Below, one piece after another: positions 3,841-39,424 of a DNA stretch of 39,476 nt. The position numbers and the translations under genes are program-made. How positions within the stretch are numbered: position 1 is the first letter of the stretch; every line of letters begins with the position of its first letter. The notes under the pieces are model-generated. The model worked only from the letters and a program-made list of their open reading frames with translations, ran no database searches and had not been told where the DNA came from. The stretch comes from Candidatus Azambacteria bacterium RIFCSPLOWO2_01_FULL_44_84 (lineage in GTDB: Bacteria; Patescibacteriota; Minisyncoccia; UBA10092): positions 1 through 39,476 of the forward strand of contig MEYR01000004.1 in NCBI GenBank assembly GCA_001774075.1, given 5' to 3'.

Positions 3841-4866
3841 ATGGAAAGAAATCGAGGAAGGCCTGAACGTTTTGACTTCTTTGTTGATAAGCTGCGTCAG
3901 GCTAAAGCCGAGATGCAGAAAGTGATCGTCGGCCAGGAGGAGATGGTTAACTGCTATTTAGCCGCGCTGATTATCGGCGGCCACATCTGGAGCGAGGGGC
4001 CGCCCGGCGTTGGGAAGACTTTGGGCGCTCGCACATTCGCCAAGATTCTGGATATTGAATTCAAAGCCATTCAGTTCACGCCGGATCTTTTACCTACGGA
4101 TATTAAAATTGCCGTTGACTTGCTTTCCGAATCCGATTCCGGCGATGTTCAGGGAGAAGCCGCTTTTTTACTTAAGAAAGTCATCCGCGGCGTTGTCTTC
4201 ACTAATTTTCTTTTGGTGGACGAAGCCAACCGCGCGCCCCAAAAAGTTCAGGCGGCGCTTCTTGAAGTTATGCAGGAGCGCGAAGTTAAGACCGGCGCCA
4301 AGACTCACAAACTCGACAGGCCTTACATGGTGGCCCTGACTTCAAACTTCATTGAACATGAAGGGACTTACGGTATTTCCGAAGCTTTGGCCGACCGTGT
4401 GACTTTGAAAACACGACTTGATTATCCATCCTTTGAGGAAGAATGCCGAGTCGCCGCCATGCGCAAAGACATTGAAGCTGATAGAATCAACCTTAAAAAG
4501 GTTTTTACGAAAGAAGAAATCGTCGAGATGCAGGACTTATTTGATTCGCTTTACCGTTACGCGCCCAATCATCCCTTGACCGAATACGCGGTCGGTATCG
4601 CGCGCGCCGTGAGAGTCCAGAAGGATTTTGTGACCTACGGGCCGACTCCGCGAGGTTCAGCCGATCTTTTGGTTTCCGCGTCGGCTCTTGCAATGATCGA
4701 GGGGACTCTGGAAGTGAGTCCGGACCATGTCAAGAAAATGGCTTTGTCGGCTTTACGCGGCACGTTCAACCTTAAGGCTGACCCCGAGCATGGCGGAAAA
4801 GATCACGACCAAATTATCACCGAAGCTATTGAAAGCGTTAAGGTATTTTCCGAGAAGCGGTCATGA
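3841..4866 (+). CDS. MoxR-family AAA+ ATPase
   Basis: 341 aa. Walker A 'GPPGVGKT', Walker B/sensor 'LLVDEANRAPQKVQAALLEVMQE', N-terminal 'VIVGQEEMV'. Confidence 0.9.
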   Translation: MERNRGRPERFDFFVDKLRQAKAEMQKVIVGQEEMVNCYLAALIIGGHIWSEGPPGVGKTLGARTFAKILDIEFKAIQFTPDLLPTDIKIAVDLLSESDSGDVQGEAAFLLKKVIRGVVFTNFLLVDEANRAPQKVQAALLEVMQEREVKTGAKTHKLDRPYMVALTSNFIEHEGTYGISEALADRVTLKTRLDYPSFEEECRVAAMRKDIEADRINLKKVFTKEEIVEMQDLFDSLYRYAPNHPLTEYAVGIARAVRVQKDFVTYGPTPRGSADLLVSASALAMIEGTLEVSPDHVKKMALSALRGTFNLKADPEHGGKDHDQIITEAIESVKVFSEKRS

Positions 4867-5711
4867 GGGGCCACTTAAGAATTTATCTTAGGCGGTTTGT
4901 TTCCGGGCTGATTGGCGGCATCTATCGTTCCAATGAACCAGGAAGCGGCGGTTATGAACTTAAAGAACTGAAAGAGTTCGGCATTGGAGACGACGTCTCG
5001 GCCGTTAACTTTCTTACGAGCATCAAGCGGGGAAAAGTGTTCTTGGTTTTACGCGAACCGGAGCGGGCTGTCAGGATCCTGTTTCTAGTGGACCTTTCAC
5101 GATCGGGGAAGTTTGGATCATCCGGCGCTTCAGCGTTGGATCTTCAAGCTTCCCTTTTGTCTATATTGAGTGAGGCCGCAGCCGAAGGCACTAATCAAAT
5201 TGGACTTCTGGCGTTTACTTCCCGCGTGGAAAACTTCTGGAAGCCGCGGGTAGGGCTCGGCAGGTTTCTTAGTAGGGTCCAAAAAGCCGCCGGTTTTACC
5301 GATTTGAAATCGGGCACCGATTTAAAGGTTGCGTTTGATTTCGCGGTAAAGTTGAAAAGCCGTCCGGACCTGACCATAATTTGTTCCGACTTTTTGGCGG
5401 AAGAAAATTACAACGAATCATTGGCGCGGCTTAAGTCAAAAAGCGATGTCGTGGCGCTGTTGCTGACCGATCCGAAGGAAAGAGAATTGGAGGCGCCTTG
5501 GGGCGGCCATATATCAATACGCGATTTGGAAAGCAGGGCCTTTAAAAACGTCGGCGGAGTCAAAGTCGATATCTGGCCGGGCGAGGAAACGCTCAAACGG
5601 TCGGCCGTCGATTACGAAGTTTTTTCAACTTCTGACGATAGTGAAGCTCAGAAGGCAAGGTTGCAGCGGCTGTTTGAAAAGAGGCGTATCGCGGGGGTGA
5701 GACTGAAATGA
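4863..5711 (+). CDS. DUF58-like (vWA-fold) protein, MoxR partner
   Basis: 282 aa. ATGA overlap with the MoxR gene. 'EFGIGDDVSAVNF..' followed by 'ILFLVDLSRSG' fits the DUF58 pattern. Confidence 0.75.
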   Translation: MRGHLRIYLRRFVSGLIGGIYRSNEPGSGGYELKELKEFGIGDDVSAVNFLTSIKRGKVFLVLREPERAVRILFLVDLSRSGKFGSSGASALDLQASLLSILSEAAAEGTNQIGLLAFTSRVENFWKPRVGLGRFLSRVQKAAGFTDLKSGTDLKVAFDFAVKLKSRPDLTIICSDFLAEENYNESLARLKSKSDVVALLLTDPKERELEAPWGGHISIRDLESRAFKNVGGVKVDIWPGEETLKRSAVDYEVFSTSDDSEAQKARLQRLFEKRRIAGVRLK

Positions 5712-7972
5712 AGCGGCCGGCCATCTTAATCTTAGTTTTTCTGGCCGGCGTATTTTTAGTCGGTTTTGAGCCATCAACTTTTGCCCAAACAGCATATACT
5801 GCTCAACAGCACTGCGCCGACGGCAAAGATAAAATTGTTGTCGCCAACAGCAACAGAACCAATGCTTTCGCGAGCGGCCAGAATGCCGTTGGCGTCATTA
5901 TTTTCGAATTTTCTCTGGAGTATCTTGTCTGCAAGGAAAAAAGCCCGAAAATTATTGAAACCAAAGAATTGATTCTTTCCGTTGCTGGCGCCAATCTTCT
6001 TGAAATCGAGGACTTCGCTCGAATTTACGTCAAAGATGAGAACGGGAAAGTCTATCCTGCAAGGATTGAAAAAACATCAAATGTTTTTGACTGGAGAGTG
6101 GTCGCTGACCTCGGCACGCGGCTTGAAAGTCAGAAGGCAAGAAAATTCCGGGTCTTTGCCGATTTGCCGAAAATGAAGCCCGGGGCCAGCTTTAACATCA
6201 CTTTCCATACCGGCAAGATGAGCCACTTCATGACCGCCGATGGCAAGACAATTGTTGCCAGCGACCAGACGGGAATGGCCGTTGCGCATTTCAATGGCAA
6301 TCGGCCGCCAAAGTTATATTGGACGGATTACAGCCAGGGCGTGAAATCCGCGGTGTCGCCCTTTTCCGGGCTTTCCGGCGAGCAGTTTGAATTCAGGATC
6401 AAGTACGGCGATGAAGACAATGAAGCGCCTAAGGCCGCGCAGGTCTGGGTCGACTTAAACGGCGATGGTAAATATCAGGCTAATGAAAAGTTCAATATGG
6501 CCATGGTCAATTCGGATCAGAAAAATTTTAGCCAAGGCGACGGCGTTGAATATTTCCGGACATTCCGGATTGTCGTTAAAAAGCCGCAAACCGTAAAGTT
6601 CAGATTCTACTTTACCGACAGTAAACTTGAGGCCGAAAGCAGTGTTCGTGTTGTGAACGAATACTCGTCTGAAGCGGCAAGACAGAAGCCGACGGATGAA
6701 TACAGTTTTACCATTGGCACGCCCGTAGCTTTTGGGTCGGTCCAACTCACCGGCGACAAATTTGTAAAAGGAGAGCCGGTCAAAATAGTTCTGCCGGTGT
6801 TCTATCTGTATCGCGATCTTGAAGTTGACTGGGCAAGCATTGCCCGCAACAACTTTGGACCGTTCAAGCTCCTGCGATGGCAGCTTGGCCGCCGCGGGAT
6901 AGCGAGTCCCGAGTATAAACTTCCGGCCGAAAATTTTGACTTCCAGGAAATTATTTTGTTCCTGGGCACGAGCGGCATTAAGACGAGCGCGGTAAATTTC
7001 CCGGCGCTGAAAATCAGCTATGGCATTAAAGACGCGAAGGGCCAATTTAAAACCCAAAGCGAAAAGTTGGCGTTTCAAAACGTAAAACTGCGGATTGAAA
7101 ATAGCGTCACCAACACTCTGATAAGAGTGGGCGATCAGTTTGTCTACTCGCTGAAGATAATCAGGCTGCCCGATTATGAGCTGGCGGATTTCAAACCCCA
7201 AGAGATGACATTTGAACCTTTTGAAACTTTGAAGTTCGCGAAACAAAGCGATAATCGCGATTTGTACATCGTTGACACTTATGTTTGGACCCTGGCAAGT
7301 TATTATGCCATATCCGATCCGATTCCTTTGCCGAGCTTTGAAATTAGCTGGCGTAAAGTCGCTGGCAAGAAAAATAACGTCCATAAGATTGAATCAGTAA
7401 TGGTCGAAATGGTTCCTATTTTGGGGAAGAACGACAAGGTAATGTCCCAATGGGACACGGGCGCGCGGCCTTGGCCTCCGCTCGCGACTTATCTTTTTAG
7501 TGTTCTGCCGATTGCTCTTGGCGGCGCGGTGCTTGTTGCGTTTTTCGGCTTTTGGGCGGTCAGACGCTTGATGGTCTGGCTCGCGATATGGCAGGAAAGC
7601 AATTACAGGGTTTTTAGGGCAAACCGCCGCAAAGCCCTGCGCCTCATCAAGTCGCTGCTCGGTCAGTTGGAAGGCAGTCTCGTTGAGCTTCTCAACTGCG
7701 TTAAAGTTTTGATCGGGCTCAATTTCGGCCTAACGTCGGAAGCGGCGCAGGCGATGACCGCGTCGGAAATCGAAACTCTGTTATCGATTCGGGGCAATTC
7801 CAAATATCAAGCCCTTAAAGATCGACTCACGGTCAAAGGCACCAATCTATTCGTGCCCAAACTTTTGGAGAAAGCGATTCTCCGGGACGAAGCAGAAGTT
7901 CTTTACTTTGAACAAGTGCTTCTGTGCGTGAAGGCATTCTTGAGAAAAACCAAATACAACCCGCCGGATTAA
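5708..7972 (+). CDS. large secreted, C-terminally membrane-anchored protein (BatD-like position)
   Basis: 754 aa. ATGA overlap with the DUF58 gene. Signal peptide 'MKRPAILILVFLAGVFLVGFEPSTFAQ', late TM 'YLFSVLPIALGGAVLVAFFGFWAV'. The family assignment is only positional. Confidence 0.7.
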   Translation: MKRPAILILVFLAGVFLVGFEPSTFAQTAYTAQQHCADGKDKIVVANSNRTNAFASGQNAVGVIIFEFSLEYLVCKEKSPKIIETKELILSVAGANLLEIEDFARIYVKDENGKVYPARIEKTSNVFDWRVVADLGTRLESQKARKFRVFADLPKMKPGASFNITFHTGKMSHFMTADGKTIVASDQTGMAVAHFNGNRPPKLYWTDYSQGVKSAVSPFSGLSGEQFEFRIKYGDEDNEAPKAAQVWVDLNGDGKYQANEKFNMAMVNSDQKNFSQGDGVEYFRTFRIVVKKPQTVKFRFYFTDSKLEAESSVRVVNEYSSEAARQKPTDEYSFTIGTPVAFGSVQLTGDKFVKGEPVKIVLPVFYLYRDLEVDWASIARNNFGPFKLLRWQLGRRGIASPEYKLPAENFDFQEIILFLGTSGIKTSAVNFPALKISYGIKDAKGQFKTQSEKLAFQNVKLRIENSVTNTLIRVGDQFVYSLKIIRLPDYELADFKPQEMTFEPFETLKFAKQSDNRDLYIVDTYVWTLASYYAISDPIPLPSFEISWRKVAGKKNNVHKIESVMVEMVPILGKNDKVMSQWDTGARPWPPLATYLFSVLPIALGGAVLVAFFGFWAVRRLMVWLAIWQESNYRVFRANRRKALRLIKSLLGQLEGSLVELLNCVKVLIGLNFGLTSEAAQAMTASEIETLLSIRGNSKYQALKDRLTVKGTNLFVPKLLEKAILRDEAEVLYFEQVLLCVKAFLRKTKYNPPD

Positions 7973-7991
7973 TCTCGGTGGGTTTTTTTTA
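7959..7991 (+). terminator. rho-independent terminator
   Basis: 'acccgccg'..'cggtgggt' stem followed by a T8 run; it overlaps the stop codon. Confidence 0.7.
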
Positions 7992-8182
7992 TTACAGTTT
8001 CTGATTGAGTTACTCATCCCACCCCGATTGTCTTTCCGAACCGGGTGTTCTCTTGCTCCAGCGGCAAGAGCCACCACTGCTCTCTCGGCTCAAAACTTCG
8101 CCTGCGGCGAAGACCAAGCTTTTTCGCCTCCGAGAGCTTCTCCAAGACAACCGGGTGGGCTTCATTAATTAGTTTTTAAAAT

Positions 8183-8350
8183 GAGGCGACTAGATGTAAT
8201 TTTTAGCAGGCTACTTTTGCGAGCGGCCAAGGTCTCCGATAAATATCGGAGGAGCGAGAAAAAGTGATCCGAGCCGACGGGCTCGGAGAGTTACTGAGCG
8301 AGTCTCGGGGGGATGAGCGAGGGGTGCTAAAAAATACATCTAGTCGCCTC
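8183..8350 (+). mobile_element. MITE-like element with about 25-bp terminal inverted repeats, copy 1
   Basis: Ends are 'gaggcgactagatgtaatttttagca' and 'tgctaaaaaatacatctagtcgcctc'. The interior aligns to the reverse complement of 14339-14495. Confidence 0.8.
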
Positions 8351-8438
8351 CTTCTACCAGTAAGTTGCATTTTCTCAAATTTTATGGCATTTTAATGGCA
8401 AATTCCGGTTCATTGATAATTCGAAACAAGGGAAGGCA

Positions 8439-9458
8439 ATGCAGGGAATCTCGTTCGAGAATCATTGGCTTCTTTTATTGGTACCTTTAGTCTGTCTTCT
8501 TTTTTTGATCAAGCGCCGCGGAGTGTACTGGGTCGGGCATCAGGTGATGTTGACTCGCCCGCTTGGATTCATCAAAAGAACCTTTCGGAAGATATCGGCT
8601 TTAACGCTTCTTTTGGCGTTTGTTTTCGCCATTATCGCCTGGGCTAACCCGACACAGGGCAAAGAAGAAAAAGTAACTAAAGTAAAAGCCCGGCAGGTTT
8701 GCATGGCGGTGGATATTTCCGGATCAATGTTCGGTTCAGTGTCATATGAGATTCAGGAAAAAAGAATCCAAGTCGCGGCAAAAGCCGGAAACGAATTCGT
8801 CGACGCTAGGGCCGGCGACATGTTCAGTTTTGTGCCCTTTGACGACAAGTCCCGCCTCGGCCTTTCTGTTCCTCTTACTTTTGACAGAGAGCTGATTAAA
8901 AAGCAGTTCCAAGCGGTTGCCGACGGGCAATCAGGCGGCAGCACCGCCATAGGCGAGGGTATCTGGAGTTGTATGATTTTTCTGGTACGCGACGCGCTTC
9001 CGAAAAAGTTCAGTCTGGACATAGGCCAACTTAGACGGTCGCTGGAAAGCGAAGATTTAGGTCCTTATGCGACAAGCGCGGCTCGCGAGATTGGCTGTCT
9101 TAAGCACGCGTTCATCACGGTTTTGACCGACGGCGAAAGCAACGCCGGAATCAACCCCTTGCGGGTGCTTGCCTTTGCCGGCCGGCTTTGCGTAAAGGTT
9201 TACACTATCGCCGCCACGCCGGAGCGTTATCCTGATCTGATTCGGGCGGTTGAAAAGACCGGCGGGCAATACTTTTTTGCCCGCGATATTCAGGAAAGCA
9301 AGCGGTTTTACTCCGATATCAACCGGATTGAAAAGAAAGAAGTTATTGTTGAAAGAGAAACCAGGGCGCGAAGTTTGCGCTGGTATTTTTCTCTGGCAAG
9401 CGCTTTGAGTCTTTTCGTTTTCGGCGTATTCAGACTCGTGGCCATTAAGGTACCGTAG
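8439..9458 (+). CDS. vWA-domain membrane protein (BatA-like)
   Basis: 339 aa. N-terminal TM 'WLLLLVPLVCLLFLI', MIDAS motif 'VDISGSM', C-terminal TM. Confidence 0.85.
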   Translation: MQGISFENHWLLLLVPLVCLLFLIKRRGVYWVGHQVMLTRPLGFIKRTFRKISALTLLLAFVFAIIAWANPTQGKEEKVTKVKARQVCMAVDISGSMFGSVSYEIQEKRIQVAAKAGNEFVDARAGDMFSFVPFDDKSRLGLSVPLTFDRELIKKQFQAVADGQSGGSTAIGEGIWSCMIFLVRDALPKKFSLDIGQLRRSLESEDLGPYATSAAREIGCLKHAFITVLTDGESNAGINPLRVLAFAGRLCVKVYTIAATPERYPDLIRAVEKTGGQYFFARDIQESKRFYSDINRIEKKEVIVERETRARSLRWYFSLASALSLFVFGVFRLVAIKVP

Positions 9459-9469
9459 GGAGTCCGGCG

Positions 9470-10087
9470 ATGAAAAGAAAAATCCGGAGATTTTTTAAGG
9501 TCATCCTAATTGCCGCCGCAATGCTTGCGGTCGTCTTTGGGATTTTTAAGTATCTCGAGCGGAATTTTATCCGCCGCGCGACAGAGCGTCTTGATAAAAA
9601 CGAACCTTACGCGGCGTTAGCCGAGTTCGATTCGTGGCAATCCTTTAAAATTCATCGTCTTGCTCTGGAGTGGGGGCTGATGGATCCACTTTGGTACTAC
9701 CATTGGGGGCTGGCGGCCTTGAGAACGGGAGATTATCAAAAAGCCTATGTTCAGTTCCGGCGGGTTAGCGAAGTTTCCAGCGATCCCGTTCTTAAGAGTC
9801 TCGCATATTTCAATCAAGGAGAAGCGCGACTGTGGCAGTGGGACGCGGGCGCACATGAGAACGCCGCTTCTCTTTATATTGACGCGCTGAAAATCAATCC
9901 CGAAATGGTTATTGCCAAAAAACGTCTTGAGTGGTTGCGCCAGGCGAACTTGGTTAAAACCAAAGCGGAAATGAAAGCCAGGGGCGATAAAGGCAGGCCT
10001 AATCAAGACAGTAAGAACCAGGATGATAAAGACGGGCAAAGCGAAAAATTCAAGTCGACCCAGGGTAAGCAGAGACGGGGCTATTAA
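9470..10087 (+). CDS. TPR-repeat membrane protein (BatC/BatE-like)
   Basis: 205 aa. N-terminal TM, TPR-like 'ALRTGDYQKAYVQFRRV' and 'AYFNQGEARL', basic/acidic tail. Confidence 0.65.
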   Translation: MKRKIRRFFKVILIAAAMLAVVFGIFKYLERNFIRRATERLDKNEPYAALAEFDSWQSFKIHRLALEWGLMDPLWYYHWGLAALRTGDYQKAYVQFRRVSEVSSDPVLKSLAYFNQGEARLWQWDAGAHENAASLYIDALKINPEMVIAKKRLEWLRQANLVKTKAEMKARGDKGRPNQDSKNQDDKDGQSEKFKSTQGKQRRGY

Positions 10088-10089
10088 AT

Positions 10090-11184
10090 ATGTGGTCTAG
10101 CGCGTCGGAATGGATTATTTGGATAAGACAGATTCAATTCGGAAGAACCGATCTTCAGAAATGGGTTTTGGTCTTTCTTGTGTCGGCGCTGTTATTCCAC
10201 ATCGCCGTTGAGATCAGGAGGTATCTGTGGCGGAGAAAAAACTTTGGCCAGAGCCGTCTGATCAAATCTATTTCTCACTGGCCGAGATGGTGGCAGGAAG
10301 TGCTACGGTCTCTGGCGTTTGTTTCCGGTTTAGTTTTGGCCGGCCTTATTGTCCTTGAGCCGATTAACAAAACGGTAGACCATAAGCCCGTCAGGGAGCC
10401 CGCTTTGATCGCGGTCGGGCTTGATGGTTCGATGTCGATGCTGGCGAAGGTCGATCCTTCATCCAGCAAATCACGATTGGACCTTTCCAAGGAACAGATT
10501 GAAAAATTAGTTACCGCTTTGAAAAAAGAAGGCAGCAGCGACAAATTAATACTCTTTACTTTTGCCGAAGAGCCACATAAGGAACTGAAAGATTTTACCG
10601 ATGACTATCCCCGGATTTTCCTGCCGGCGCTGGATTCGGTGGAAGATTTTTATGTCCGGGCGTTCGGATACGGAACTGATTTGTCAAAAGTAATGGAATT
10701 TTGTGCCAAAGCATTTCCTAAGTCGGAGTACCAGAAAATTTGTCTTGTTGTGACGGATGGGGAACTTGAGGGAAAGGATCTTAAGAAACTCGATGAAGAT
10801 TTCCAGAAAAGTTTGAAAGAATGGCGGGTTGTCGGTAAAGGCATAAAACTATATTTTATTGCCGTCGGACACGGCGGCAGGGCGGAAAGGATTCCTAAGT
10901 TCAATATTTACGGCAATGCCACAAATGAGTACGAAACCGACGATGATGGCAAGGATATTAAAACGAGAACGCGTCCCGATTATCTGCGCAAAGCCGCGGT
11001 CCTCGCCGGCGGCGGCTTTATACATCTGCAGGCAAGCAACAGCGACGAAGCGATGCTTGCCGGCGTGGTTGAAAAGGGCAAAAAGATAATCGGCTGGAAA
11101 AAAGTCGAAAAGGTTGCCGACGTTTCAGAAAACTTTATTAAAGTTTATCTGATTATTCTCTTGTTGATTTTGCTGTTTGTTTAA
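10090..11184 (+). CDS. vWA-domain membrane protein (BatB-like)
   Basis: 364 aa. TM segments at both ends and the MIDAS-like motif 'GLDGSMSM'. Confidence 0.8.
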   Translation: MWSSASEWIIWIRQIQFGRTDLQKWVLVFLVSALLFHIAVEIRRYLWRRKNFGQSRLIKSISHWPRWWQEVLRSLAFVSGLVLAGLIVLEPINKTVDHKPVREPALIAVGLDGSMSMLAKVDPSSSKSRLDLSKEQIEKLVTALKKEGSSDKLILFTFAEEPHKELKDFTDDYPRIFLPALDSVEDFYVRAFGYGTDLSKVMEFCAKAFPKSEYQKICLVVTDGELEGKDLKKLDEDFQKSLKEWRVVGKGIKLYFIAVGHGGRAERIPKFNIYGNATNEYETDDDGKDIKTRTRPDYLRKAAVLAGGGFIHLQASNSDEAMLAGVVEKGKKIIGWKKVEKVADVSENFIKVYLIILLLILLFV

Positions 11185-16250: not shown

Positions 16251-16814
16251 ATGAAAGAGGCAATGCGTAATTTTTTTGGCTTTATCTGGGAACTTTTTAA
16301 GATCGCCGTCATTGCGTTGGTGCTGGCGGGGCTTGCCCGTTATTTTATTTTCCAGCCGTTTTTCGTGAAAGGCGCTTCCATGGAGCCGAATTTTGACGAT
16401 GGCCAATACTTGATAGTTGATGAGCTAAGTTATTATTTCCGCACTCCTGAAAGGGGCGAAGTGATTGTTTTTAAGTATCCTTTAGACACCCGCACTTACT
16501 ATATCAAAAGGATAATAGGGCTTCCCGGGGAGACGGTTGAGATTAAATCCGGACAGGTGAATGTTTATAATGACGAAAACCCCAAAGGTTTTGTTTTGAA
16601 TGAGGCTTACTTGCCACAAGGCCTCGCGACCGATGGCAATGTCAAACAGCGCCTCAATAGGGATGAATATTTTGTTCTTGGCGATAACAGATTGTCGTCT
16701 TCGGATTCCCGGCGCTGGGGGGTTTTGCCAAAAAGCGATATTGTTGGAAGGGTGTTTGTAAGGGTCTGGCCGGTGGATACTTTTGAATTACTCAATCAGG
16801 CGCCGGCGTATTAG
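16251..16814 (+). CDS. lepB: signal peptidase I
   Basis: 'GASMEPNF', 'YIKRIIGLPGETV', 'VLGDNRLSSSDSRRWG'. Confidence 0.93.
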   Translation: MKEAMRNFFGFIWELFKIAVIALVLAGLARYFIFQPFFVKGASMEPNFDDGQYLIVDELSYYFRTPERGEVIVFKYPLDTRTYYIKRIIGLPGETVEIKSGQVNVYNDENPKGFVLNEAYLPQGLATDGNVKQRLNRDEYFVLGDNRLSSSDSRRWGVLPKSDIVGRVFVRVWPVDTFELLNQAPAY

Positions 16815-22730: not shown

Positions 22731-24092
22731 ATGCCTAAATCAAAAGTTTTTGTTTTGATATTGATGAGTTTTGTGGGAGGCATATTTCTGTATTCATTTT
22801 TAAAAACTCCGCCGATGATTATCGGCGGAGTTTTTGTTTTCGGCGTTTTCATATTACTGAGAGGCGCTTGCCGCAGGTTTAAAGATTTAGAGTTCGTTTT
22901 CGGAATCGTTTTTGGCATTTGCATTTTGATTTTCGGTTTTGGACTCTGGCGCAGCGCAGTGGTTTTTGATAACACAGGGCGAGGGATAACTTCTTATGCG
23001 AGCGGCGACGCTCTAGAGCTTTCCGGTTTGGTATCAGAAGAGCCGGATGTCAGGACAGACGCGGTCTATTATGTTTTAGAAACGCCTGACTTTGGCAAGG
23101 TTCTTTTTAAAACGCCACTCTGGCCGGCATACTCTTACGGCGATTTACTGACGATTAAAGGGATAATTCGTCGGCCGGAAAACTTCGATGACTTTGATTA
23201 TAAAAATTATCTTGCAAAACGGGATATATTTTGGGTTGGACAAAATTTCAAAATTACAAAAGTTGATTCATCCGGCCGCGTGACTCTTTTTGGACGTTTG
23301 TTTTCCTACAAAGGCGCGTTTGTTGCCAGCGTCAATAAAATTTTAAGCGAACCGCACGCTTCTTTTCTAAACGCGCTACTTTTGGGGGCAAGGCGCGGTT
23401 TGCCAAAAGACTTGCTCGAAGCTTTTAATAAAACTGGAACAAGCCATATCGTCGCCATTTCCGGCTACAATATCTCTCTTATCAGTGTCTTAGTTTTCAA
23501 TTTCTTGGCGTATTTGCTTGTTCCGAGGCGTGCCAGTATTTGGATAGTCGGCGCTGGCATAGTTTTCTTTACTGTTATTTCCGGCGCTAGCGCTTCTGTC
23601 GTGCGCGCCGCTATTATGGGGAGCCTTCTGATTATCGCTCGGGCTCGCGATCGGATTTATGGCGTTAGCAATGCGTTGGTTTTAGCCGGAGCGTTAATGC
23701 TCTTTTTAAATCCGCGTCTTTTACGCTATGACGCGGGGTTTCAACTGTCCTTTCTCGCCACTTTGGGGCTTATTTATATTTCGCCATATTTTAATAAATG
23801 GTTTTCGACATTGCCCAATATATTTTCTTTTCGCGCTAATTTGGCGGCGACTCTTTCGGCTCAAGCGGCGGTTTTTCCTGTTTTACTTTTCGGATTCGGA
23901 CAAGTTTCTCTTGTCGCGCCCCTGGCCAATGTTTTAATCTTACCCGCTATCCCTCCGACAATGTTTTTCGGTTTTTTGGCGGGCATTGCCGGCTTCGTGT
24001 CGGTCGGCGCCGCGTCGGTAATAGCGATTCCGGCTTGGATTTTACTTTCTTGGCAACTTTTTATTGTTAAGTTTTTGAGCGGACTATTATGA
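22731..24092 (+). CDS. comEC: ComEC/Rec2 competence channel (N-terminal and membrane domains only)
   Basis: 453 aa, polytopic; signature 'TGTSHIVAISGYNISL'. Confidence 0.88.
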   Translation: MPKSKVFVLILMSFVGGIFLYSFLKTPPMIIGGVFVFGVFILLRGACRRFKDLEFVFGIVFGICILIFGFGLWRSAVVFDNTGRGITSYASGDALELSGLVSEEPDVRTDAVYYVLETPDFGKVLFKTPLWPAYSYGDLLTIKGIIRRPENFDDFDYKNYLAKRDIFWVGQNFKITKVDSSGRVTLFGRLFSYKGAFVASVNKILSEPHASFLNALLLGARRGLPKDLLEAFNKTGTSHIVAISGYNISLISVLVFNFLAYLLVPRRASIWIVGAGIVFFTVISGASASVVRAAIMGSLLIIARARDRIYGVSNALVLAGALMLFLNPRLLRYDAGFQLSFLATLGLIYISPYFNKWFSTLPNIFSFRANLAATLSAQAAVFPVLLFGFGQVSLVAPLANVLILPAIPPTMFFGFLAGIAGFVSVGAASVIAIPAWILLSWQLFIVKFLSGLL

Positions 24093-25042
24093 AGCGTTAT
24101 TTTATTTTCCTGGCGGCAGTTGCGCTTTTTACGGCAGTTATTTGGGGCCTGATTTTTGTAAAAACTCAAGGCGTCCTTTTGGAAGTGATTTTTTTTGATG
24201 TAGGCCAGGGCGATTCTATTTTAATAAAAACGCCTTACGAGCAAACAATGCTGGTTGACGGCGGTCCCGATAATAGAGTTCTAAATAAATTGGGAGACCA
24301 TTTGCCGCCGCTTCAAAAAAGAATCGATATTGTTATTCTCACACATCCTCACGCGGACCATGTTACCGGGCTTGTTGAGGTTCTGAAAAGATATGACGTC
24401 GGAGTGGTCATTATGAGCGCCGCCTATCTGAAGACCGATATATACGGCGAATTTTTAAAAACGCTGCGCGACAAAAATACGTCTATAATATTCGCTAAAG
24501 CTGGTCAGGCGCTTCACTTCGGCCCGAAAATGGATGTTGATATTTTATGGCCGGAAAGAAATAAGCTCGACTTATTCGGCGGATATAATGAAAGCTTCGG
24601 CATGGCCGGCAATGACGTGAATGACGACTCCGTGGTTACGAAGATGAGTTTTGGCGATTTCGCTTTGCTCATGACCGGAGACGCCACATCGGCGGTAGAA
24701 AAACAGCTTTTGGCTTACGGTAACGGCCTGCGGGCGGATATATTGAAAGTGGGCCATCATGGCTCGAAATATTCTTCTTCTTTGGAGTTTCTAAAGTTAG
24801 TTCAGCCTCAAGCCTCGATAATAGAGGTCGGTGCGCGTAATCGCTATGGTCATCCGGCGCCGGCGACTCTGGATCGATTAAAAAATTTTTCGCCTCAAGG
24901 AGCGGACCAGCTTCTCAAGTCTGAAACTTTCGGAGTCGAACGACCTCAGGCTGAAAATATTTCGATATTCCGCACCGATAAAGACAGTGACATCAAAGTA
25001 CTAAGCAATGGTTACACGACGAGCATCTTTAAGGAAAAATAA
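24089..25042 (+). CDS. membrane-anchored MBL-fold hydrolase (ComEC C-terminal domain as a separate ORF)
   Basis: 317 aa. ATGA overlap with comEC, N-terminal TM, 'HPHADHVTGL', 'GHHGS'. Confidence 0.85.
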   Translation: MKRYFIFLAAVALFTAVIWGLIFVKTQGVLLEVIFFDVGQGDSILIKTPYEQTMLVDGGPDNRVLNKLGDHLPPLQKRIDIVILTHPHADHVTGLVEVLKRYDVGVVIMSAAYLKTDIYGEFLKTLRDKNTSIIFAKAGQALHFGPKMDVDILWPERNKLDLFGGYNESFGMAGNDVNDDSVVTKMSFGDFALLMTGDATSAVEKQLLAYGNGLRADILKVGHHGSKYSSSLEFLKLVQPQASIIEVGARNRYGHPAPATLDRLKNFSPQGADQLLKSETFGVERPQAENISIFRTDKDSDIKVLSNGYTTSIFKEK

Positions 25043-30164: not shown

Positions 30165-30557
30165 ATGAGTATGAGAGTAAATGCCGATGGTTCTATTGAT
30201 TTCCTGAGAGGGAAACAAACTTATAGGTTCGAAAAGCAGAATTATGACAGACATGCCAAAAAACGTCCGAAGATTTTGCATCAAAAATTTTTGAATGAAA
30301 TAGAAACCACAATTACTGATCCAGATTGTATAACGGTGGGATCGCAATTGAACAAAGAGAATTTTTATAGGGTAGTCTATTTCGATGATATAAGGGGAAC
30401 TAGGTTTTTAACATTTTGGAAAATACCAGTTTTTTATCACAATAAAAATTTTGCTGTCATAGCAACCGCAATCGAGAAAAATGCCCCCAATTTTTATGCT
30501 ATAAATCCTTTAGAAAATAGAAAAGTGCCATGGAGAAAAACAAATTCACAAATTTAA
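30165..30557 (+). CDS. hypothetical protein, possible RelE/Barnase-EndoU-fold toxin (DUF4258/PBECR-like)
   Basis: 130 aa in a low-GC gene. 'DRHAKKRPKILHQKFLNEIETTITDPDCI' resembles the H..K/R..-helix-'PD.I' signature of those nuclease families. Confidence 0.4.
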   Translation: MSMRVNADGSIDFLRGKQTYRFEKQNYDRHAKKRPKILHQKFLNEIETTITDPDCITVGSQLNKENFYRVVYFDDIRGTRFLTFWKIPVFYHNKNFAVIATAIEKNAPNFYAINPLENRKVPWRKTNSQI

Positions 30558-30970
30558 TAAATAGCCTTTCCGCAATAGCTGAAAAAGATCTTTGGATGCC
30601 GAGATACGATAAAGAATTAGATTATTTTTTTTGGACAAGAGAATCAGTATCTAAAAGAGCTAAGCTAATACAGGTTTCTCATGAAGCCTCCCTTTATGTT
30701 AGCCCAAAAGGGAAAATTGAAGGTGTTCTTGTTGAATATTTACAGAGCAACTTTGTCGAGCACAACCCTACATATAAGGATTTTGTTAAAAGTTTTACTA
30801 AGAGAATAGACGATTCCGTCTATACCATTAAAGATACTGACAATGAGAATAAGTATTTATTTGCATTTGGTGAGGCATTACGAGCTGATATATATCAGGA
30901 TGCCAAAGAAATCGGAAAGGGTAAGTTAGATTTAGATGATTTAGCTAAATACGCCTTTGCAAAGAGCTAG
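30530..30970 (+). CDS. hypothetical protein with a DUF2283-like core (possible antitoxin)
   Basis: 146 aa; overlaps the upstream ORF by 28 nt. 'RYDKELDYFFWT' ... 'VSPKGKIEGVLVEY' matches the 'YD.e.D.ly...G.ivGiEi' pattern. Confidence 0.45.
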   Translation: MEKNKFTNLINSLSAIAEKDLWMPRYDKELDYFFWTRESVSKRAKLIQVSHEASLYVSPKGKIEGVLVEYLQSNFVEHNPTYKDFVKSFTKRIDDSVYTIKDTDNENKYLFAFGEALRADIYQDAKEIGKGKLDLDDLAKYAFAKS

Positions 30971-34440: not shown

Positions 34441-34445
34441 TAGCC

Positions 34446-34510
34446 CCTACGAATTACGAATTTTACCGAATTACGAATTCGTAATTCGAACCCCATTCGT
34501 AATTGGTAGG
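34446..34510. repeat. CCTAC-(ATTACGAAT)n hairpin element, copy 3
   Basis: 'cctacgaattacgaattttaccgaattacgaattcgtaattcgaaccccattcgtaattggtagg'. Confidence 0.85.
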
Positions 34511-34527
34511 AAAATTTTAAAAAATTT

Positions 34528-34854
34528 ATGAACTTCAGTGAATTAAAAAAATTAATGGGTGAAAACGGCAGGCTTGTCATCGTCGAAAATGACAAGGCTG
34601 CGTATGTCGTTTTAACCGCCAGAGAATTTCTGGCGCTGCCCGCCTCTGTTAAGCTTTCCGCCGGAAGCGAGACTCGTCGAGAGTGGCAGGGGAACGAACC
34701 GGAAAATAAAATCACCAAATCGGTGTCAAAACCCGAACTCACGGCCGGCAAGAAAAGCCCCACTTCGTTCGCCAATTTTGAAGATACCGGAGAAGCTCTC
34801 GGACTGCAGGATATAACATTCGAAGATTTGGGTATTGACGAGTTGCCAGAATAG
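34528..34854 (+). CDS. hypothetical protein with a Phd/YefM-like N-terminus and an acidic disordered tail
   Basis: 108 aa; 'GENGRLVIVENDKAAYVVLTAREFLAL' resembles the antitoxin beta-alpha core. No toxin partner is adjacent. Confidence 0.45.
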   Translation: MNFSELKKLMGENGRLVIVENDKAAYVVLTAREFLALPASVKLSAGSETRREWQGNEPENKITKSVSKPELTAGKKSPTSFANFEDTGEALGLQDITFEDLGIDELPE

Positions 34855-34864
34855 GGGAGTGCCT

Positions 34865-34893
34865 TGACAGAGCAGAAGCTTTTGATTAATATA
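34865..34893 (+). promoter_or_regulatory. sigma70-like promoter upstream of tuf (implies a leader of about 230 nt)
   Basis: TTGACA (34865-34870), 17-nt spacer, TAATAT (34888-34893). Confidence 0.5.
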
Positions 34894-34949
34894 TTGATTG
34901 CATCTAAATGTATGGCTCCCCGCCCACTTTTTACGAAGTAAGTAGTTTG

Positions 34950-34999
34950 GCGGCGCGCTGCGCCCAACAAGGGTTCTGCTATTCGCAGTCGCGCGCCGC
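34950..34999 (+). other. GC-rich hairpin in the putative tuf leader
   Basis: 'gcggcgcgctgcg' pairs with 'cgca(gtc)gcgcgccgc'. It resembles the hairpin at 31099-31133. Confidence 0.6.
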
Positions 35000-35128
35000 A
35001 AGAGATTAAGAAGATTATTCTTAACTCGAATCTATACTTTACAGTCATGGTAAAAAGTAAGCGGGATGCTCATATTTTTAGCTAAAAATTTTCATTATTA
35101 AGAAATATAATTCAATTTTTAGAAAAAT

Positions 35129-36322: not shown

Positions 36323-36395
36323 GCTGCAAATGTACAAATTTTACGTATGTACAAATTTGTAAATTTGTAAGGATTTGTAAATTCGTAACCTTTAA

Positions 36396-36795: not shown

Positions 36796-36867
36796 CCTAC
36801 TCCTACGAATTACGAATATTTTCGAATTACGAATATTCGCAATTCGTCATAATTCGTAATTGGTAGG
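36796..36867. repeat. CCTAC-(ATTACGAAT)n hairpin element, copy 4
   Basis: 'cctactcctacgaattacgaatattttcgaattacgaat' pairs with 'attcgcaattcgtcataattcgtaattggtagg'. Confidence 0.85.
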
Positions 36868-36877
36868 GATAAAATTT

Positions 36878-37507
36878 ATGAAGTTTATTTTGGGGAAAAA
36901 ATTAACGATGAATCAGGTTTTTGATGAAACGGGTCGTGTGACGCCGGTTACTTATATTGAGATTGAACCGAATTTCGTGACGCAGGTAAAAACTCAAGAC
37001 AAAGACGGCTACAGCGCCTTGCAAGTCGGCACGACTAAAACCAAAAAAGTTTCAAAAGCGAGGGCCGGCCACCTCCAAAAAATCTCAAATCTCAATTCTC
37101 AAATCTCAAATTTGCGCGATTTGAAAGAATTCAGAATGAGCGGGGAGGAAGCGAAAAATTTTAAAACAGGAGACAAATCGGAAGCCGACACGTTTGCGCA
37201 GGGCGACACGGTGACCGTCATTGGAGTTTCAAAAGGCAAGGGTTTTCAGGGCGTTGTTAAGCGCCACGGGTTCGCGGGAGGGCCTGCCAGCCACGGCCAG
37301 AAAGACAGGCACCGGGCGCCTGGTTCTATCGGTTCGTCTTTTCCGGAACACGTTATGAAAGGCATGAGAATGGCCGGCCGCATGGGCGGAGAAAAAATTA
37401 CGGTGAAAAATTTGAAAGTTATTTCGGTTGACAAAGAAAATCAGTTGATCGCGCTTTCGGGCGCGGTGCCGGGAAGAAAAGGCAGTCTGGTTATTATTAA
37501 GGGATAG
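36878..37507 (+). CDS. rplC: 50S ribosomal protein L3
   Basis: Start at 'MKFILGKKLTMNQVFDE' (the track TTG at 36860 lies inside the repeat). 'GKGFQGVVKRHGF', 'PGSIGSS'. Confidence 0.95.
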   Translation: MKFILGKKLTMNQVFDETGRVTPVTYIEIEPNFVTQVKTQDKDGYSALQVGTTKTKKVSKARAGHLQKISNLNSQISNLRDLKEFRMSGEEAKNFKTGDKSEADTFAQGDTVTVIGVSKGKGFQGVVKRHGFAGGPASHGQKDRHRAPGSIGSSFPEHVMKGMRMAGRMGGEKITVKNLKVISVDKENQLIALSGAVPGRKGSLVIIKG

Positions 37508-37621
37508 AACCTTATAACAATAATTTTAAATTTTTAATTTTAAATTTCGAATCAAATTCGAATTATTTAATGTTTGAAACATTCAGACATTTAAAATTCA
37601 TTTAAAATTCAAAATTTGAAA

Positions 37622-37656
37622 TTGAAAATTAAAGAAAACCCCCGCAGTTGCGGGGG
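37622..37656 (-). terminator. rho-independent terminator for the minus-strand cassette
   Basis: The minus strand reads 'cccccgc aact gcggggg' followed by 'ttttctttaatttt'. On the plus strand no T-run follows the hairpin. Confidence 0.6.
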
Positions 37657-37697
37657 ACGTCGGCGGGGTTTGAACCTGCTGACGATTTGGTAGGGAA

Positions 37698-38549
37698 CTA
37701 GTAGGGAAGCCAGACCTCGGCTCCTCCTGGTTGCACGTAGAGACGGCAGCCGGGAGTTCCCGGATAGCACAACGCTGTCCGGGATGGCGGCAGGTTTAGC
37801 CGTTGGCCGTAGTAGCCGGGAGGCGGGCCGCCGTAAGTGAAGATCGGTGTTAGGACGGTTACATGCGGGACTGGCTGCGGCTGGTAAGCCGGAGCCGGCG
37901 CGTAGTACGACGCATTGATCGGGGGGCCGGTCGGCCCCCCCTCGCTCCTCGTGCAGTTGCAGGGAGCCGGAGCCGGCACTGGAGCCGGCAGTTGCGGCTT
38001 GGGAGCTGGCGCCGGAGGCGCCAGGTCTTTCTTCGGCGCCGGAGCCGGCTTCGCCGGCTTGGCTGGGCGTTCCCATGGCCGGTCGCCGAACTGGCTGACC
38101 GGCGGGGCCACGACTCTGACCTTCTCCATCCGAACCACTGCCGGCGAAAAGCCGGCGAGGTTTGCGATGAGAAGCATGCCGAGGCCCGCAAGCGCCAGGC
38201 CCAGGAAGAACCCAAGCCAAGCGCGCGGTAGGTTACCGCGCGAGCGCCGAGACGCCGCGGGAGGAGCGACAGAGGCCGGGGGTGTGGGAGGGGTCGGCAG
38301 AGTGCCGCGGCGGCGCGGGGCGGCGGGAGCCGGAGGCGGGGTTGGAACGGGCGGAGTCGGTGGGACAGGTGGTGCCGGAGGAGACGGAGACGTTGGCGGG
38401 GCCGGAGGCCTGGGTGGCCGTGGCCGCCGAGGCGGATTCGTTCCACCGACGGCAGACCCGCCGGAAAGCGGAGCCGAGCCAGCCGGAGGATTTCCGGCGC
38501 TCGCGCGGAGTTGCGCCACCATTGCGGCGCGTTGCGCTGCAGTTGCCAT
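37698..38549 (-). CDS. proline-rich single-pass membrane protein (283 aa), no family recognised
   Basis: ATG preceded by 'aaaggaggagtagacc'. Central TM 'AWLGFFLGLALAGLGMLLIANLAGF' preceded by 'RRSRGNLPR'. PPAPP/PAPAP/KPAKPA runs on both sides. The other five frames are also open, so the frame choice rests on the SD and the TM helix. Confidence 0.55.
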   Translation of the reverse strand: MATAAQRAAMVAQLRASAGNPPAGSAPLSGGSAVGGTNPPRRPRPPRPPAPPTSPSPPAPPVPPTPPVPTPPPAPAAPRRRGTLPTPPTPPASVAPPAASRRSRGNLPRAWLGFFLGLALAGLGMLLIANLAGFSPAVVRMEKVRVVAPPVSQFGDRPWERPAKPAKPAPAPKKDLAPPAPAPKPQLPAPVPAPAPCNCTRSEGGPTGPPINASYYAPAPAYQPQPVPHVTVLTPIFTYGGPPPGYYGQRLNLPPSRTALCYPGTPGCRLYVQPGGAEVWLPY

Positions 38550-38563
38550 GGTCTACTCCTCCT

Positions 38564-38692
38564 TTATGCGCTACCAGAGCGCTTGCAGTTTTTCCAGTTT
38601 TTCAGTAGCAAGTAACCGAGAATTAGCCAGCCTCCAGGCAGAATCAGCAGAGGGATTATCCACCACTTATACCACAGCTTCTGTTTGGGCAT
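38564..38692 (-). CDS. possible 42-aa hydrophobic peptide (or simply the 5-prime UTR of the downstream ORF)
   Basis: MPKQKLWYKWWIIPLLILPGGWLILGYLLLKNWKNCKRSGSA. Its stop lies inside the SD region of the 283-aa ORF. Its own SD (GGAG, 1 nt from the ATG) is poorly spaced. Confidence 0.3.
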   Translation of the reverse strand: MPKQKLWYKWWIIPLLILPGGWLILGYLLLKNWKNCKRSGSA

Positions 38693-38749
38693 TCTCCGCT
38701 TTCTCAAGCCAAATATTCAAAATTGACAAACAACCGATTTTATAATAAC

Positions 38750-38778
38750 ATTTTAGCATATTTTTAGCCAAATGTCAA
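38750..38778 (-). promoter_or_regulatory. near-consensus sigma70-like promoter facing away from rplD
   Basis: The minus strand reads TTGACA (38778-38773), 17 nt 'tttggctaaaaatatgc', TAAAAT (38755-38750). Confidence 0.5.
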
Positions 38779-38785
38779 GGGATTT

Positions 38786-39424
38786 ATGAAAGATATTAAA
38801 GTATATAACCAAGAAGGGAAAGAAATAGGAAAATTAGAGCTCAACGAAGCCATTTTTAATTTGTCTTGGAATGCCGATCTGGTTCATCAGGCTTTAGGCA
38901 AGATTTTGGCTAATTCAAGGCGAGTTTTAGCCAATACCAAGGATCGCGCTCAAGTTTCGGGCGGCGGCAGAAAACCTTGGAAGCAAAAAGGCACCGGCCG
39001 GGCCAGGCACGGCTCAATCCGCTCTCCTCTATGGAAGGGCGGCGGCGTGTCTTTCGGACCGACAAGCCAAAGGAACTTCAAAGTCAAAATAAACAAAAAA
39101 ATGGCTCGGAAGGCCCTTTTGACCGTTCTTTCCGCTAAATTCAAAGACAATGAGCTTTTGGTAATTGACCGGCTGAAATTGGCTGGCGCCAAGACCAGGG
39201 AACTTTCAAAAATTTTGGGGGCGTTTCCCAAAATCAAATCGGCTTTGGTGATTCTGCCGAAAAAGGACGATGATATTCTGCGCGCCTCAGCCAATCTTCC
39301 CGGAGTGAAAATAATTACGACCGACAATTTGAATATTTTTGATATTTTAAAATACCAGAATGTGTTTTTAACTAGAGATGTCGTCGATTATCTGCACAAA
39401 ACTTATGGTAAAACTGTTAAATAA
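38786..39424 (+). CDS. rplD: 50S ribosomal protein L4
   Basis: 'GGGRKPWKQKGTGRARHGSIRSPLWKGGGVSFGP'. Confidence 0.96.
   Translation: MKDIKVYNQEGKEIGKLELNEAIFNLSWNADLVHQALGKILANSRRVLANTKDRAQVSGGGRKPWKQKGTGRARHGSIRSPLWKGGGVSFGPTSQRNFKVKINKKMARKALLTVLSAKFKDNELLVIDRLKLAGAKTRELSKILGAFPKIKSALVILPKKDDDILRASANLPGVKIITTDNLNIFDILKYQNVFLTRDVVDYLHKTYGKTVK

Follow-up and report, generated by a model that had tools for sequence, protein, structure and literature searches.

Our analysis points to an operon encoded antisense to the ribosomal-protein genes of the S10 gene cluster in Candidatus Azambacteria bacterium RIFCSPLOWO2_01_FULL_44_84. The stretch studied, called the window below, comprises the 39,476 nucleotides of contig MEYR01000004.1 (assembly GCA_001774075.1), and the element in question, called the cassette, fills the space between rplC and rplD. 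We consider it probable that the cassette is a minus-strand operon with genes for a 42-amino-acid (aa) peptide and a 283-aa envelope protein, that it is vertically inherited and fixed between rplC and rplD in one clade of groundwater Patescibacteria, and that it shares its promoter with rplD. A preliminary description, made from the letters of the window, had listed in this gap a minus-strand promoter, a possible 42-aa hydrophobic open reading frame (ORF), a 283-aa ORF preceded by a Shine-Dalgarno site, and a GC hairpin with a T-run. Every one of these sequence features was found where it had been placed (Table 1), and the reading of the gap as an autonomous coding unit on the opposite strand, equipped with a promoter, a Shine-Dalgarno site and a terminator, not only holds for the window but extends to the whole clade.

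Few gene orders in prokaryotes are as well conserved as that of the S10-spc cluster, which underlies most phylogenomic marker sets. In the window, rplC and rplD are 1,278 bp apart (37508-38785), as the preliminary description had read them, and this gap is far outside the norm, because in 79 other genomes with both genes the median spacing is 45 bp and the largest 688 bp. Gene order and orientation on the plus strand are the same as in the canonical S10 operon (rpsJ-rplC-rplD-rplW-...); what differs is that the adjacency of rplC and rplD is broken by the antisense operon and that rplD has its own predicted promoter, with a leader that is either very short or carries an upstream ORF (uORF). Here, rplD is the first gene of the predicted downstream ribosomal-protein transcription unit, which continues with rplW-rplB-rpsS-rplV-rpsC-rplP... 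in the related loci L001 and L091, and an rplC orthologue flanks the cassette in every related locus of sufficient length. The canonical S10 operon of E. coli is known for L4 autoregulation. In the cassette region, a search against Rfam detected no known ribosomal-protein leader RNA or other RNA family, and a tRNA-Pro was the sole match in the whole window.

The locus recurs in independent assemblies. L002, an independently assembled groundwater contig, has the same rplC and rplD and, between them, the gene for a 283-aa protein that differs by one substitution, and the JGI contig L114, again an independent assembly, encodes the 283-aa protein in the same locus. In a further genome (L001), whose L4 and L3 are 85% and 84% identical to those of the window, the same antisense slot holds a 269-aa homologue (P0003, 43% identity), and the 42-aa ORF, promoter, Shine-Dalgarno site and terminator are retained. 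Between the window and L001, the ratio of nonsynonymous to synonymous substitution rates (dN/dS) is 0.39 for the 283-aa ORF, with 214 aligned codons and all indels in frame, and 0.31 for the 42-aa ORF, compared with 0.14 for rplC and 0.14 for rplD. These values indicate that both cassette ORFs are under purifying selection, and the evolutionary rate of the cassette is roughly three times that of its ribosomal neighbours.

Clade-wide synteny emerged from two kinds of search. With an alignment that runs from the transmembrane (TM) helix to the C terminus as query, 1.84 billion representative proteins were searched exhaustively by profile, which returned P0005 to P0009 and P0012; P0013 and P0014 came from a further search by word index. 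A scan of about 241 million metagenome records with the promoter DNA motif gave 27 matches, 24 of them directly upstream of rplD with a cassette behind. Profile and motif searches thereby yielded about 25 cassette loci, and all contigs with enough flank show rplD divergent upstream and rplC convergent downstream. Searches of GTDB (Genome Taxonomy Database), JGI metagenomes and viral contigs with protein alignments, run as back-translated Pro-rich patterns that proved too unspecific, gave no confirmed relatives. In a neighbour-joining tree of L4 from the cassette loci and 79 GTDB representatives, 19 distinct cassette loci form an exclusive clade of Patescibacteria (20/20 bootstraps), with Wolfebacteria and Paceibacterota-type metagenome-assembled genomes as nearest neighbours; on the whole, the clade stands closest to genomes of Paceibacteria/Parcubacteria type. 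Within the cassette clade, L4 proteins are at least 58% identical, and their identity to genomes outside never exceeds 53%. Full-text literature searches found no description of an antisense cassette between rplC and rplD. We regard as new the protein family, its fixed antisense position in the S10 operon, and a promoter built into the rplD start codon; among the components, the Pro-rich anchored protein and the bidirectional promoter are of known kinds.

The 283-aa product (Pro 25%, Ala 15%, Gly 9%, Arg 7%) belongs to a new family. Profile searches with this protein, the 42-aa product, their homologues, and the lipoproteins described below gave nothing above noise in Pfam, NCBIfam, PHROGs, or PADLOC, whose anti-phage defence models had 0 matches for eight cassette proteins, and a PDB profile search with the 283-aa family matched only Pro/Ala-rich linkers (e.g., 6xkw_Y of cytochrome c_y, and E2 lipoyl linkers). 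The Kyte-Doolittle maximum of the protein lies at aa 110-128, with a net charge of +4 on the N-terminal flank and +1 on the C-terminal flank. Structure prediction, which the preliminary description had proposed as a check, gave a clear result for parts of the protein: the AlphaFold2 (AF2) model, built from a 10-sequence alignment, has a mean predicted local distance difference test (pLDDT) score of 60.6 and is confident for an N-terminal helix, a polyproline run in the tail (aa 41-80) and the TM helix (aa 109-131, pLDDT ~94), not for the stalk or for the head (about 50).

Comparison across the family yields a more consistent picture of topology. Invariant columns of the family alignment are confined to the TM helix and the residues directly behind it (...L..NLAG[YF]GPA[IV]V..E.VR[IV]V.PP). 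The 15 residues before the helix carry a net charge of +1 to +6 in 22 of 23 homologues, the exception being L104 (0), with a doubtful ATG-only start call that begins at the TM segment, and the 15 residues after it carry -1 to +2, with L094 (+4) as an outlier. All Cys residues in the 23 homologues are C-terminal to the TM helix, save one in a likely spurious N-terminal extension of P0008, and their number is even in 22 of the 23. Taken together, flank charges and Cys distribution indicate that the protein is probably oriented N-in/C-out with a disulfide-bonded extracytoplasmic head, which supports the topology originally proposed for it, namely, an Arg-rich N-terminal side, one TM helix, and a Cys/Tyr-containing C terminus. 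The Arg/Pro-rich N-terminal tail, which has 108 residues in the window protein, is absent from several members (P0006, P0008, and P0009) and is therefore not at the core of the function. A resemblance of RRPRPPRPP in this tail to ribosome-targeting proline-rich peptides was considered and dropped, as the tail is not conserved in the family.

We thus envisage a protein anchored N-in/C-out, in which a dispensable cytoplasmic tail would be followed by the TM helix with its conserved juxtamembrane motif. The polyproline stalk, some 50 residues in length, would measure ~15 to 18 nm if it adopts a polyproline II helix, enough to cross a cell wall, and its tip would carry a small, disulfide-stabilised head rich in Tyr, Trp and Pro. 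The same layout of signal-anchor helix, Pro/Ala tether and small head is known from cytochrome c_y-type anchors and from Pro-rich wall-spanning regions of Gram-positive bacteria; unlike these, the window protein has no CxxCH haem-binding motif, LPXTG sorting signal or known head domain, and its matches to cytochrome c_y-type and E2 linkers are low-complexity similarity, not homology.

The heads are modular. In the P0006/P0014 group and others, a lipoprotein of 66 to 90 aa is encoded downstream of the bitopic gene, and in L113 the slot holds a lipoprotein alone. The lipoprotein of L105 is 73% identical to the C terminus of P0013 (E 2e-18), and the lipoprotein P0004 is 77% identical to P0003 (E 1e-23). 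At least five head types recur; all are short, with a high share of Tyr, Trp, His, Pro and Gly, and a C-x5-8-C loop is present in most. Because the lipoproteins carry the same heads, the slot would appear to display a fast-evolving head either near the membrane or at the end of a stalk. A likeness to WXXGXW/YXWGXW repeat lipoproteins (Pfam PF12779) was considered and rejected, since the lipoproteins and heads remained unmatched even at E <= 10. The architecture of stalk and head, the existence of lipoprotein paralogues and the rapid evolution together lead us to infer a function in surface or wall-spanning display, that is, an envelope-spanning surface-display protein whose expression may be tied to ribosomal genes.

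The remainder of the slot is variable as well. The 42-aa ORF, which the preliminary description had listed as possible, is 72% identical in L001, partly kept in L083 and identical in L114; it is the ATG version that is conserved, in contrast to a TTG-start version of 47 aa. Other subclades have unrelated TM peptides of 27 to 42 aa, or none, upstream of the main gene. Between one and three small TM peptides precede it in the window, in L001 and in L083, and such small membrane peptides appear to be readily gained and duplicated. L083 carries three successive small TM-peptide ORFs ahead of the main gene (1-270), each with a Shine-Dalgarno site and a basic C-terminal tail. The Shine-Dalgarno site AAGGAGGAG of the 283-aa ORF lies against the stop codon of the 42-aa ORF and overlaps it, so the two ORFs may be translationally coupled, and equivalent AGGAGG sites stand ahead of the main ORF in related loci. 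In L092/L111 (Ga0209541_10150969, 1100-2169), the place of rplC after P0014, a lipoprotein and the terminator is taken by at least one further gene on the opposite strand, which encodes 206 aa and has no Pfam match; the slot can thus expand further. Outside the slot, L121 (68-955, 1127-1330) encodes P0004, a 67-aa lipoprotein with the P0003/P0005 head, beside an rve-family transposase gene, and P0004 is also present in the groundwater sample that yielded L002.

We think it unlikely that the 283-aa protein is instead a cleaved, secreted Pro-rich protein, the hydrophobic segment of which is a Sec signal peptide and the stalk and head of which are released or wall-bound. The tail-less members P0006, P0009 and P0008 (from its likely true start) do begin with M-x-[RK]-[RK]-W, ~19 hydrophobic residues and NLAG|[FY]GPA, a layout that resembles the n-, h- and c-regions of a signal peptide, and the window itself has a signal peptidase I gene (16251-16814). 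However, the hydrophobic segment lies 108 residues from the N terminus in the window protein and 30 to 55 residues from it in many others, its h-region of 19 to 23 residues has an anchor-like length, and an A-x-A cleavage motif is absent. Moreover, the TM helix and juxtamembrane motif are the most conserved parts, which would be odd for a discarded signal peptide.

Upstream of the 42-aa ORF lies a predicted, pseudo-symmetric bidirectional promoter. The TTGACA-17-TAAAAT element previously recognised on the minus strand matches the consensus at 11 of 12 positions and has an upstream TG, and the argument that rplD would need read-through or a new promoter finds a likely answer in a conserved TTGACA-17-TAACAT directed towards rplD (38723-38751), interleaved with the cassette promoter. 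The -10 hexamers of the two promoters overlap by 2 bp on opposite strands, each -35 falls inside the initial transcribed region of the other promoter, and the predicted start sites (~38743 on the minus and ~38758 on the plus strand) are 15 bp apart. The overlapping -10 boxes, each with a suitably spaced -35, are conserved in 25 loci, to which the ascertainment caveat discussed below applies.

An element of ~55 bp is common to all seven lineages found by protein homology. On the rplD strand, it reads TTGACAaa-N17-TA[AC][CG]AT-tctatcatattttt.aaatt-ATGTCAA in most loci, and the consensus of the cassette strand is TTGACAT-N17-(TG)nTA[GA]AAT. ATGTCAA marks the start codon of rplD in most clade loci (MSSFKVYNQEG...), and read as reverse complement it forms the cassette -35. 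Among 80 loci of GTDB representatives, none of which belongs to the clade, one (L007) combines an ATGTCAA start with an antisense -10 at 17 nt, and the same locus is the sole one of the 80 with an antisense gene in the rplC-rplD gap. The promoter element is ~97% identical between the window and L001, compared with differences at 37% to 53% of synonymous sites. L007 comes from a distant member of the Parcubacteria (RS_13_30, L4 47% identical); its antisense ORF between rplC and rplD (4651-4887, minus strand) encodes 78 aa, is lipoprotein-like and carries a 'PCNC' motif like the window protein, and its promoter is TTGACA-17-TATATT (4967-4995), with a -35 that is the reverse complement of the rplD start ATGTCAA.

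In the window, the uORF of 5 codons in front of rplD is apparently a relic of the ancestral rplD start ATGTCAA, and it suggests either termination-reinitiation or a very short rplD leader. L001 (6145-6285), L111 and L117 have extra sequence between the bidirectional promoter and rplD, beginning ATGTCAAcccc...; the L111 insert forms a GC hairpin (ccccgccc...gcgggg), and in L001 the ancestral ATG opens a uORF of 34 codons. At the other end of the cassette, eight related loci share a near-identical CCCCCGCGCAACGCGGGGG with a T-run. The predicted terminator reads as unidirectional, since the plus strand, that of rplC, lacks a T-run after the hairpin.

Bidirectional promoters with overlapping -10 elements have been documented in E. 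coli, where RNA polymerases compete when a -35 is improved towards consensus and where the start sites are most often 18 bp apart, the commonest classes being 10, 18, and 23 bp (PMC12825309). The element described here resembles them in its overlapping opposite-strand -10 hexamers, its pseudo-symmetry, and its divergent, predicted starts ~15 bp apart, and by analogy we take the steric exclusion of two RNA polymerases to apply to it as well. Unlike the E. coli cases, both of its arms are near-consensus and conserved clade-wide, one of them leads into the main cluster of ribosomal-protein genes, the start codon of rplD supplies one -35, and the 15-bp spacing is outside the commonest classes. As both -35 elements are the consensus TTGACA, competition between RNA polymerases would be expected.

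Considering these data, we propose the following model. Cassette transcription would run from the near-consensus extended -10 promoter to the conserved intrinsic terminator before rplC. With the cassette promoter interleaved with that of rplD, the S10 operon would be split into an rpsJ-rplC unit and a unit from rplD onward, and cassette expression would be wired to the ribosomal-protein promoter, with probable steric competition. It is a possible, albeit somewhat doubtful, extension of this model that the clade rebuilt the start of the rplD-led cluster around a compact bidirectional promoter of consensus strength, the second arm of which drives a hypervariable, modular surface-display cassette with Cys-loop heads that are either stalked or lipid-anchored. 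As the two RNA polymerase binding modes would be mutually exclusive, the synthesis of a surface or host-contact protein and that of a dozen ribosomal proteins would then be directly and reciprocally coupled at initiation.

The conservation of the promoter could also be read differently, in that the slot might be selected mainly as DNA or RNA, i.e., as a promoter, insulator or interference module that uncouples rplD and the genes after it from rpsJ-rplC, with the proteins as secondary passengers. Nothing else in the slot is as well conserved as the promoter (97% identity of L001 to the window, compared with 59% amino-acid identity of the ORF), and the cargo varies between loci from peptides to the bitopic protein and lipoproteins, down to the lipoprotein alone in L113. 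We give this reading little credence, as dN/dS values of 0.31 to 0.39, in-frame indels, conserved TM and juxtamembrane motifs, even Cys numbers, and strong Shine-Dalgarno sites speak for selection on proteins, and no locus was found to have the promoter with an empty slot.

Several points weigh against an antisense operon for a surface-display protein. Promoter function is predicted from consensus match and conservation. For L094 to L120, the search pattern already specified the extended -10 of the cassette, together with the -35 of rplD and four of the six bases in its -10, so conservation there is by construction, and independent evidence for the promoter comes only from the seven protein-homology lineages, the ATGTCAA box and the adjacency of rplD. 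Similarly, clade members were found via the cassette or its promoter, and members lacking the cassette are undetectable by such searches (ascertainment bias). The predicted start-site distance differs from the modal 18 bp in E. coli. On the protein side, stalk and head have low AF2 confidence, a homologue of known function was absent from all library searches, leaving the architecture as the ground for a surface-display role, and members without the N-terminal tail resemble long signal peptides, so cleavage and release are possible. Finally, P0002, a 236-aa database variant with no contig on record, matches the 283-aa protein exactly over residues 1-96, after which its reading frame changes; we deduce from this a deletion of ~226 nt (window ~38035-38260), with loss of TM helix and head. 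P0002 could be a natural null allele, hinting that the gene is dispensable, or an assembly error between GC-rich repeats.

The suggestion in the preliminary description that the protein has no recognisable domain and a TonB-like or anti-sigma-like topology stood in its first half; the likeness is a loose architectural analogy, the defining domains being absent. The 283-aa protein does share with TonB its overall arrangement, with a cytoplasmic part at the N terminus, one TM helix serving as membrane anchor, a long, rigid, Pro-rich spacer across an envelope compartment, and a small C-terminal domain. Its head, in contrast, is a Cys/Tyr/Trp-rich module of roughly 40 to 80 aa that also occurs on lipoproteins. 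Pfam, NCBIfam and PDB profile searches with the window protein and six to nine homologues gave no match to TonB_C (Pfam PF03544), and zf-HC2, RskA, RsdA or other domains were likewise absent. The N-terminal part, where an anti-sigma domain would be expected, is a low-complexity Pro/Arg/Ala tail without a Pfam or NCBIfam match and is missing in P0006, P0008, and P0009. No ExbB/ExbD or TolQ/R was found among the Pfam-scanned ORFs of the 39-kb window, and no gene for an ECF sigma factor lies beside the cassette, the flanks of which are always rplC and rplD. To our knowledge, Patescibacteria are generally regarded as having no outer membrane, which we also count against a TonB function. An energy transducer or transmembrane signalling protein of this type is therefore very improbable.

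Still less credit can be given to a recently acquired foreign or mobile GC-rich island. GC content is 0.65 to 0.77 across 37700-38500, compared with 0.46 for the whole window, and the 283-aa ORF has a GC content of 0.71 and a GC content at third codon positions (GC3) of 0.69 compared with about 0.52 in neighbouring genes. However, host codon usage applied to the 283-aa sequence already predicts a GC content of 0.669 (observed, 0.708) and a GC3 of 0.604 (observed, 0.691), and the Pro, Ala and Gly codon preferences of the ORF match those of the host. Most of the GC excess is explained by amino-acid composition and host codon usage; the caveat in the preliminary description had spoken of a part. 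We found no flanking direct repeats or target-site duplications around the cassette, no adjacent tRNA, no integrase or transposase genes, and no relatives in viral contigs, and the same slot is occupied across a clade in which L4 has diverged to 58% identity. A foreign origin, which the preliminary description had called not proven, is thus not supported; the data favour vertical inheritance.

An assembly chimera or a non-coding GC-rich spacer, to which the sharp composition junctions and the six open frames (previously noticed, and each with an ORF of at least 108 aa in the GC-rich stretch) had given some appeal, is practically untenable, as the same junctions recur in L002 and L114, from other samples, and of all the long frames only that of 283 aa is preserved in L001 and open across divergent homologues.

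If the reciprocal coupling of surface protein and ribosomal proteins is real, it would tie the production of ribosomes to the cell surface in ultra-small, probably symbiotic bacteria, a link that had not been described before. A clade-wide, stably inherited antisense operon within the S10 cluster would show that this operon can be split and re-promoted, and a promoter with two consensus -35 elements, overlapping -10 elements, and one -35 taken from a start codon could serve to test ideas about RNA polymerase competition. The family, hitherto unannotated, is defined by a TM anchor, juxtamembrane motif, polyproline stalk, interchangeable disulfide heads, and lipoprotein paralogues, and its fast evolution is the pattern expected of envelope and host-interaction proteins, which are poorly understood in Patescibacteria. 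In practical terms, the cassette is a synapomorphy by which an uncultured groundwater lineage can be recognised, and gene callers and operon-based binning should expect a GC-rich interruption of 0.4 to 1.4 kb at rplC-rplD.

Table 1. Positions of the cassette, its parts, and its neighbours in the window
Feature	Position	Strand	Remarks
rplC (uL3)	36860-37507	+	Pfam Ribosomal_L3, 8e-18; convergent neighbour of cassette
AT-rich inverted repeat	37522-37623	.	24-nt arms, 92% complementary; between rplC stop and cassette terminator
Intrinsic terminator (predicted)	37629-37656	-	Hairpin CCCCCGCAACTGCGGGGG (37656-37639), then T-run
283-aa ORF	37698-38549	-	Bitopic envelope protein (probable), new family; AF2, homologues, dN/dS, synteny
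Arg/Pro-rich cytoplasmic tail (predicted)	aa 1-108 of 283-aa protein		
Transmembrane helix	aa 109-131; 38157-38225	-	AF2 helix, Kyte-Doolittle maximum
Juxtamembrane motif NLAGFSPAVVRMEKVRVV	aa ~132-146 of 283-aa protein		
Polyproline stalk (predicted)	aa ~147-196 of 283-aa protein		
Extracytoplasmic head (predicted), Cys/Tyr/Pro-rich	aa 197-283; 37701-37961	-	4 Cys (CNC, then C-x7-C), motif RLYVQPGGAEVW
Shine-Dalgarno site AAGGAGGAG of 283-aa ORF	38556-38564	-	6 nt from ATG; read from sequence
42-aa small membrane peptide (MPKQKLWYKWWIIPLLILPGGWLILGYLLLKNWKNCKRSGSA)	38564-38692	-	ATG 38692, stop at 38564; first gene of operon, accessory
Pseudo-symmetric bidirectional promoter (predicted)	38723-38778	.	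Consensus match, conservation
rplD promoter (predicted)	-35 TTGACA 38723-38728; -10 TAACAT 38746-38751	+	17-nt spacer
Cassette promoter (predicted)	-35 TTGACA 38778-38773; TG 38758-38757; -10 TAAAAT 38755-38750	-	17-nt spacer, 11/12 consensus match
5-codon uORF (ATG TCA AGG GAT TTA TGA)	38772-38789	+	Stop overlaps rplD ATG (ATGA)
rplD (uL4)	38786-39424	+	Pfam Ribosomal_L4, 3e-62; divergent neighbour of cassette

The true start of rplC is more likely the ATG at 36878. Within this gene, a tandem 14-nt repeat (AAATCTCAAATCTC / AATTCTCAAATCTC) at 37080-37107 marks the place of an insertion of 7 residues in uL3 (…QKISNLNSQISNL…) relative to L001. Long AT-rich palindromes or inverted repeats occupy the spacers between tuf and rpsJ (36327-36370), between rpsJ and rplC (36802-36867, with 33-nt arms and no loop), and between rplC and the cassette; the last is kept in L001 and missing from most other clade loci, which have spacers of 50 to 110 nt. 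These structures could be terminators, processing sites, or protein-binding sites.

Between fusA and tuf, which are 688 bp apart (34441-35128), lies a second break in what is normally a tight translation operon. This gap holds a sense-strand ORF of 108 aa (34528-34854, MNFSELKKLMGENGRLVIVENDKAAYVVL...), which, judged by eye, may resemble the N terminus of a Phd/YefM-type antitoxin, and a promoter-like TTGACA-17-TAATAT ahead of tuf (34864-34892). Just upstream of rpsL (30165-30970) are two overlapping ORFs (130 and 146 aa) with no Pfam match, the GC content (0.33 to 0.34) and GC3 (0.29) of which are well below the window mean of 0.46. Elsewhere in the window, a MoxR-type AAA ATPase, a DUF58 gene, and several VWA-domain genes form a Bat-like operon (3841-11184), and ComEC is divided between two genes, one with the Competence domain and the other for a metallo-beta-lactamase (22731-25042).

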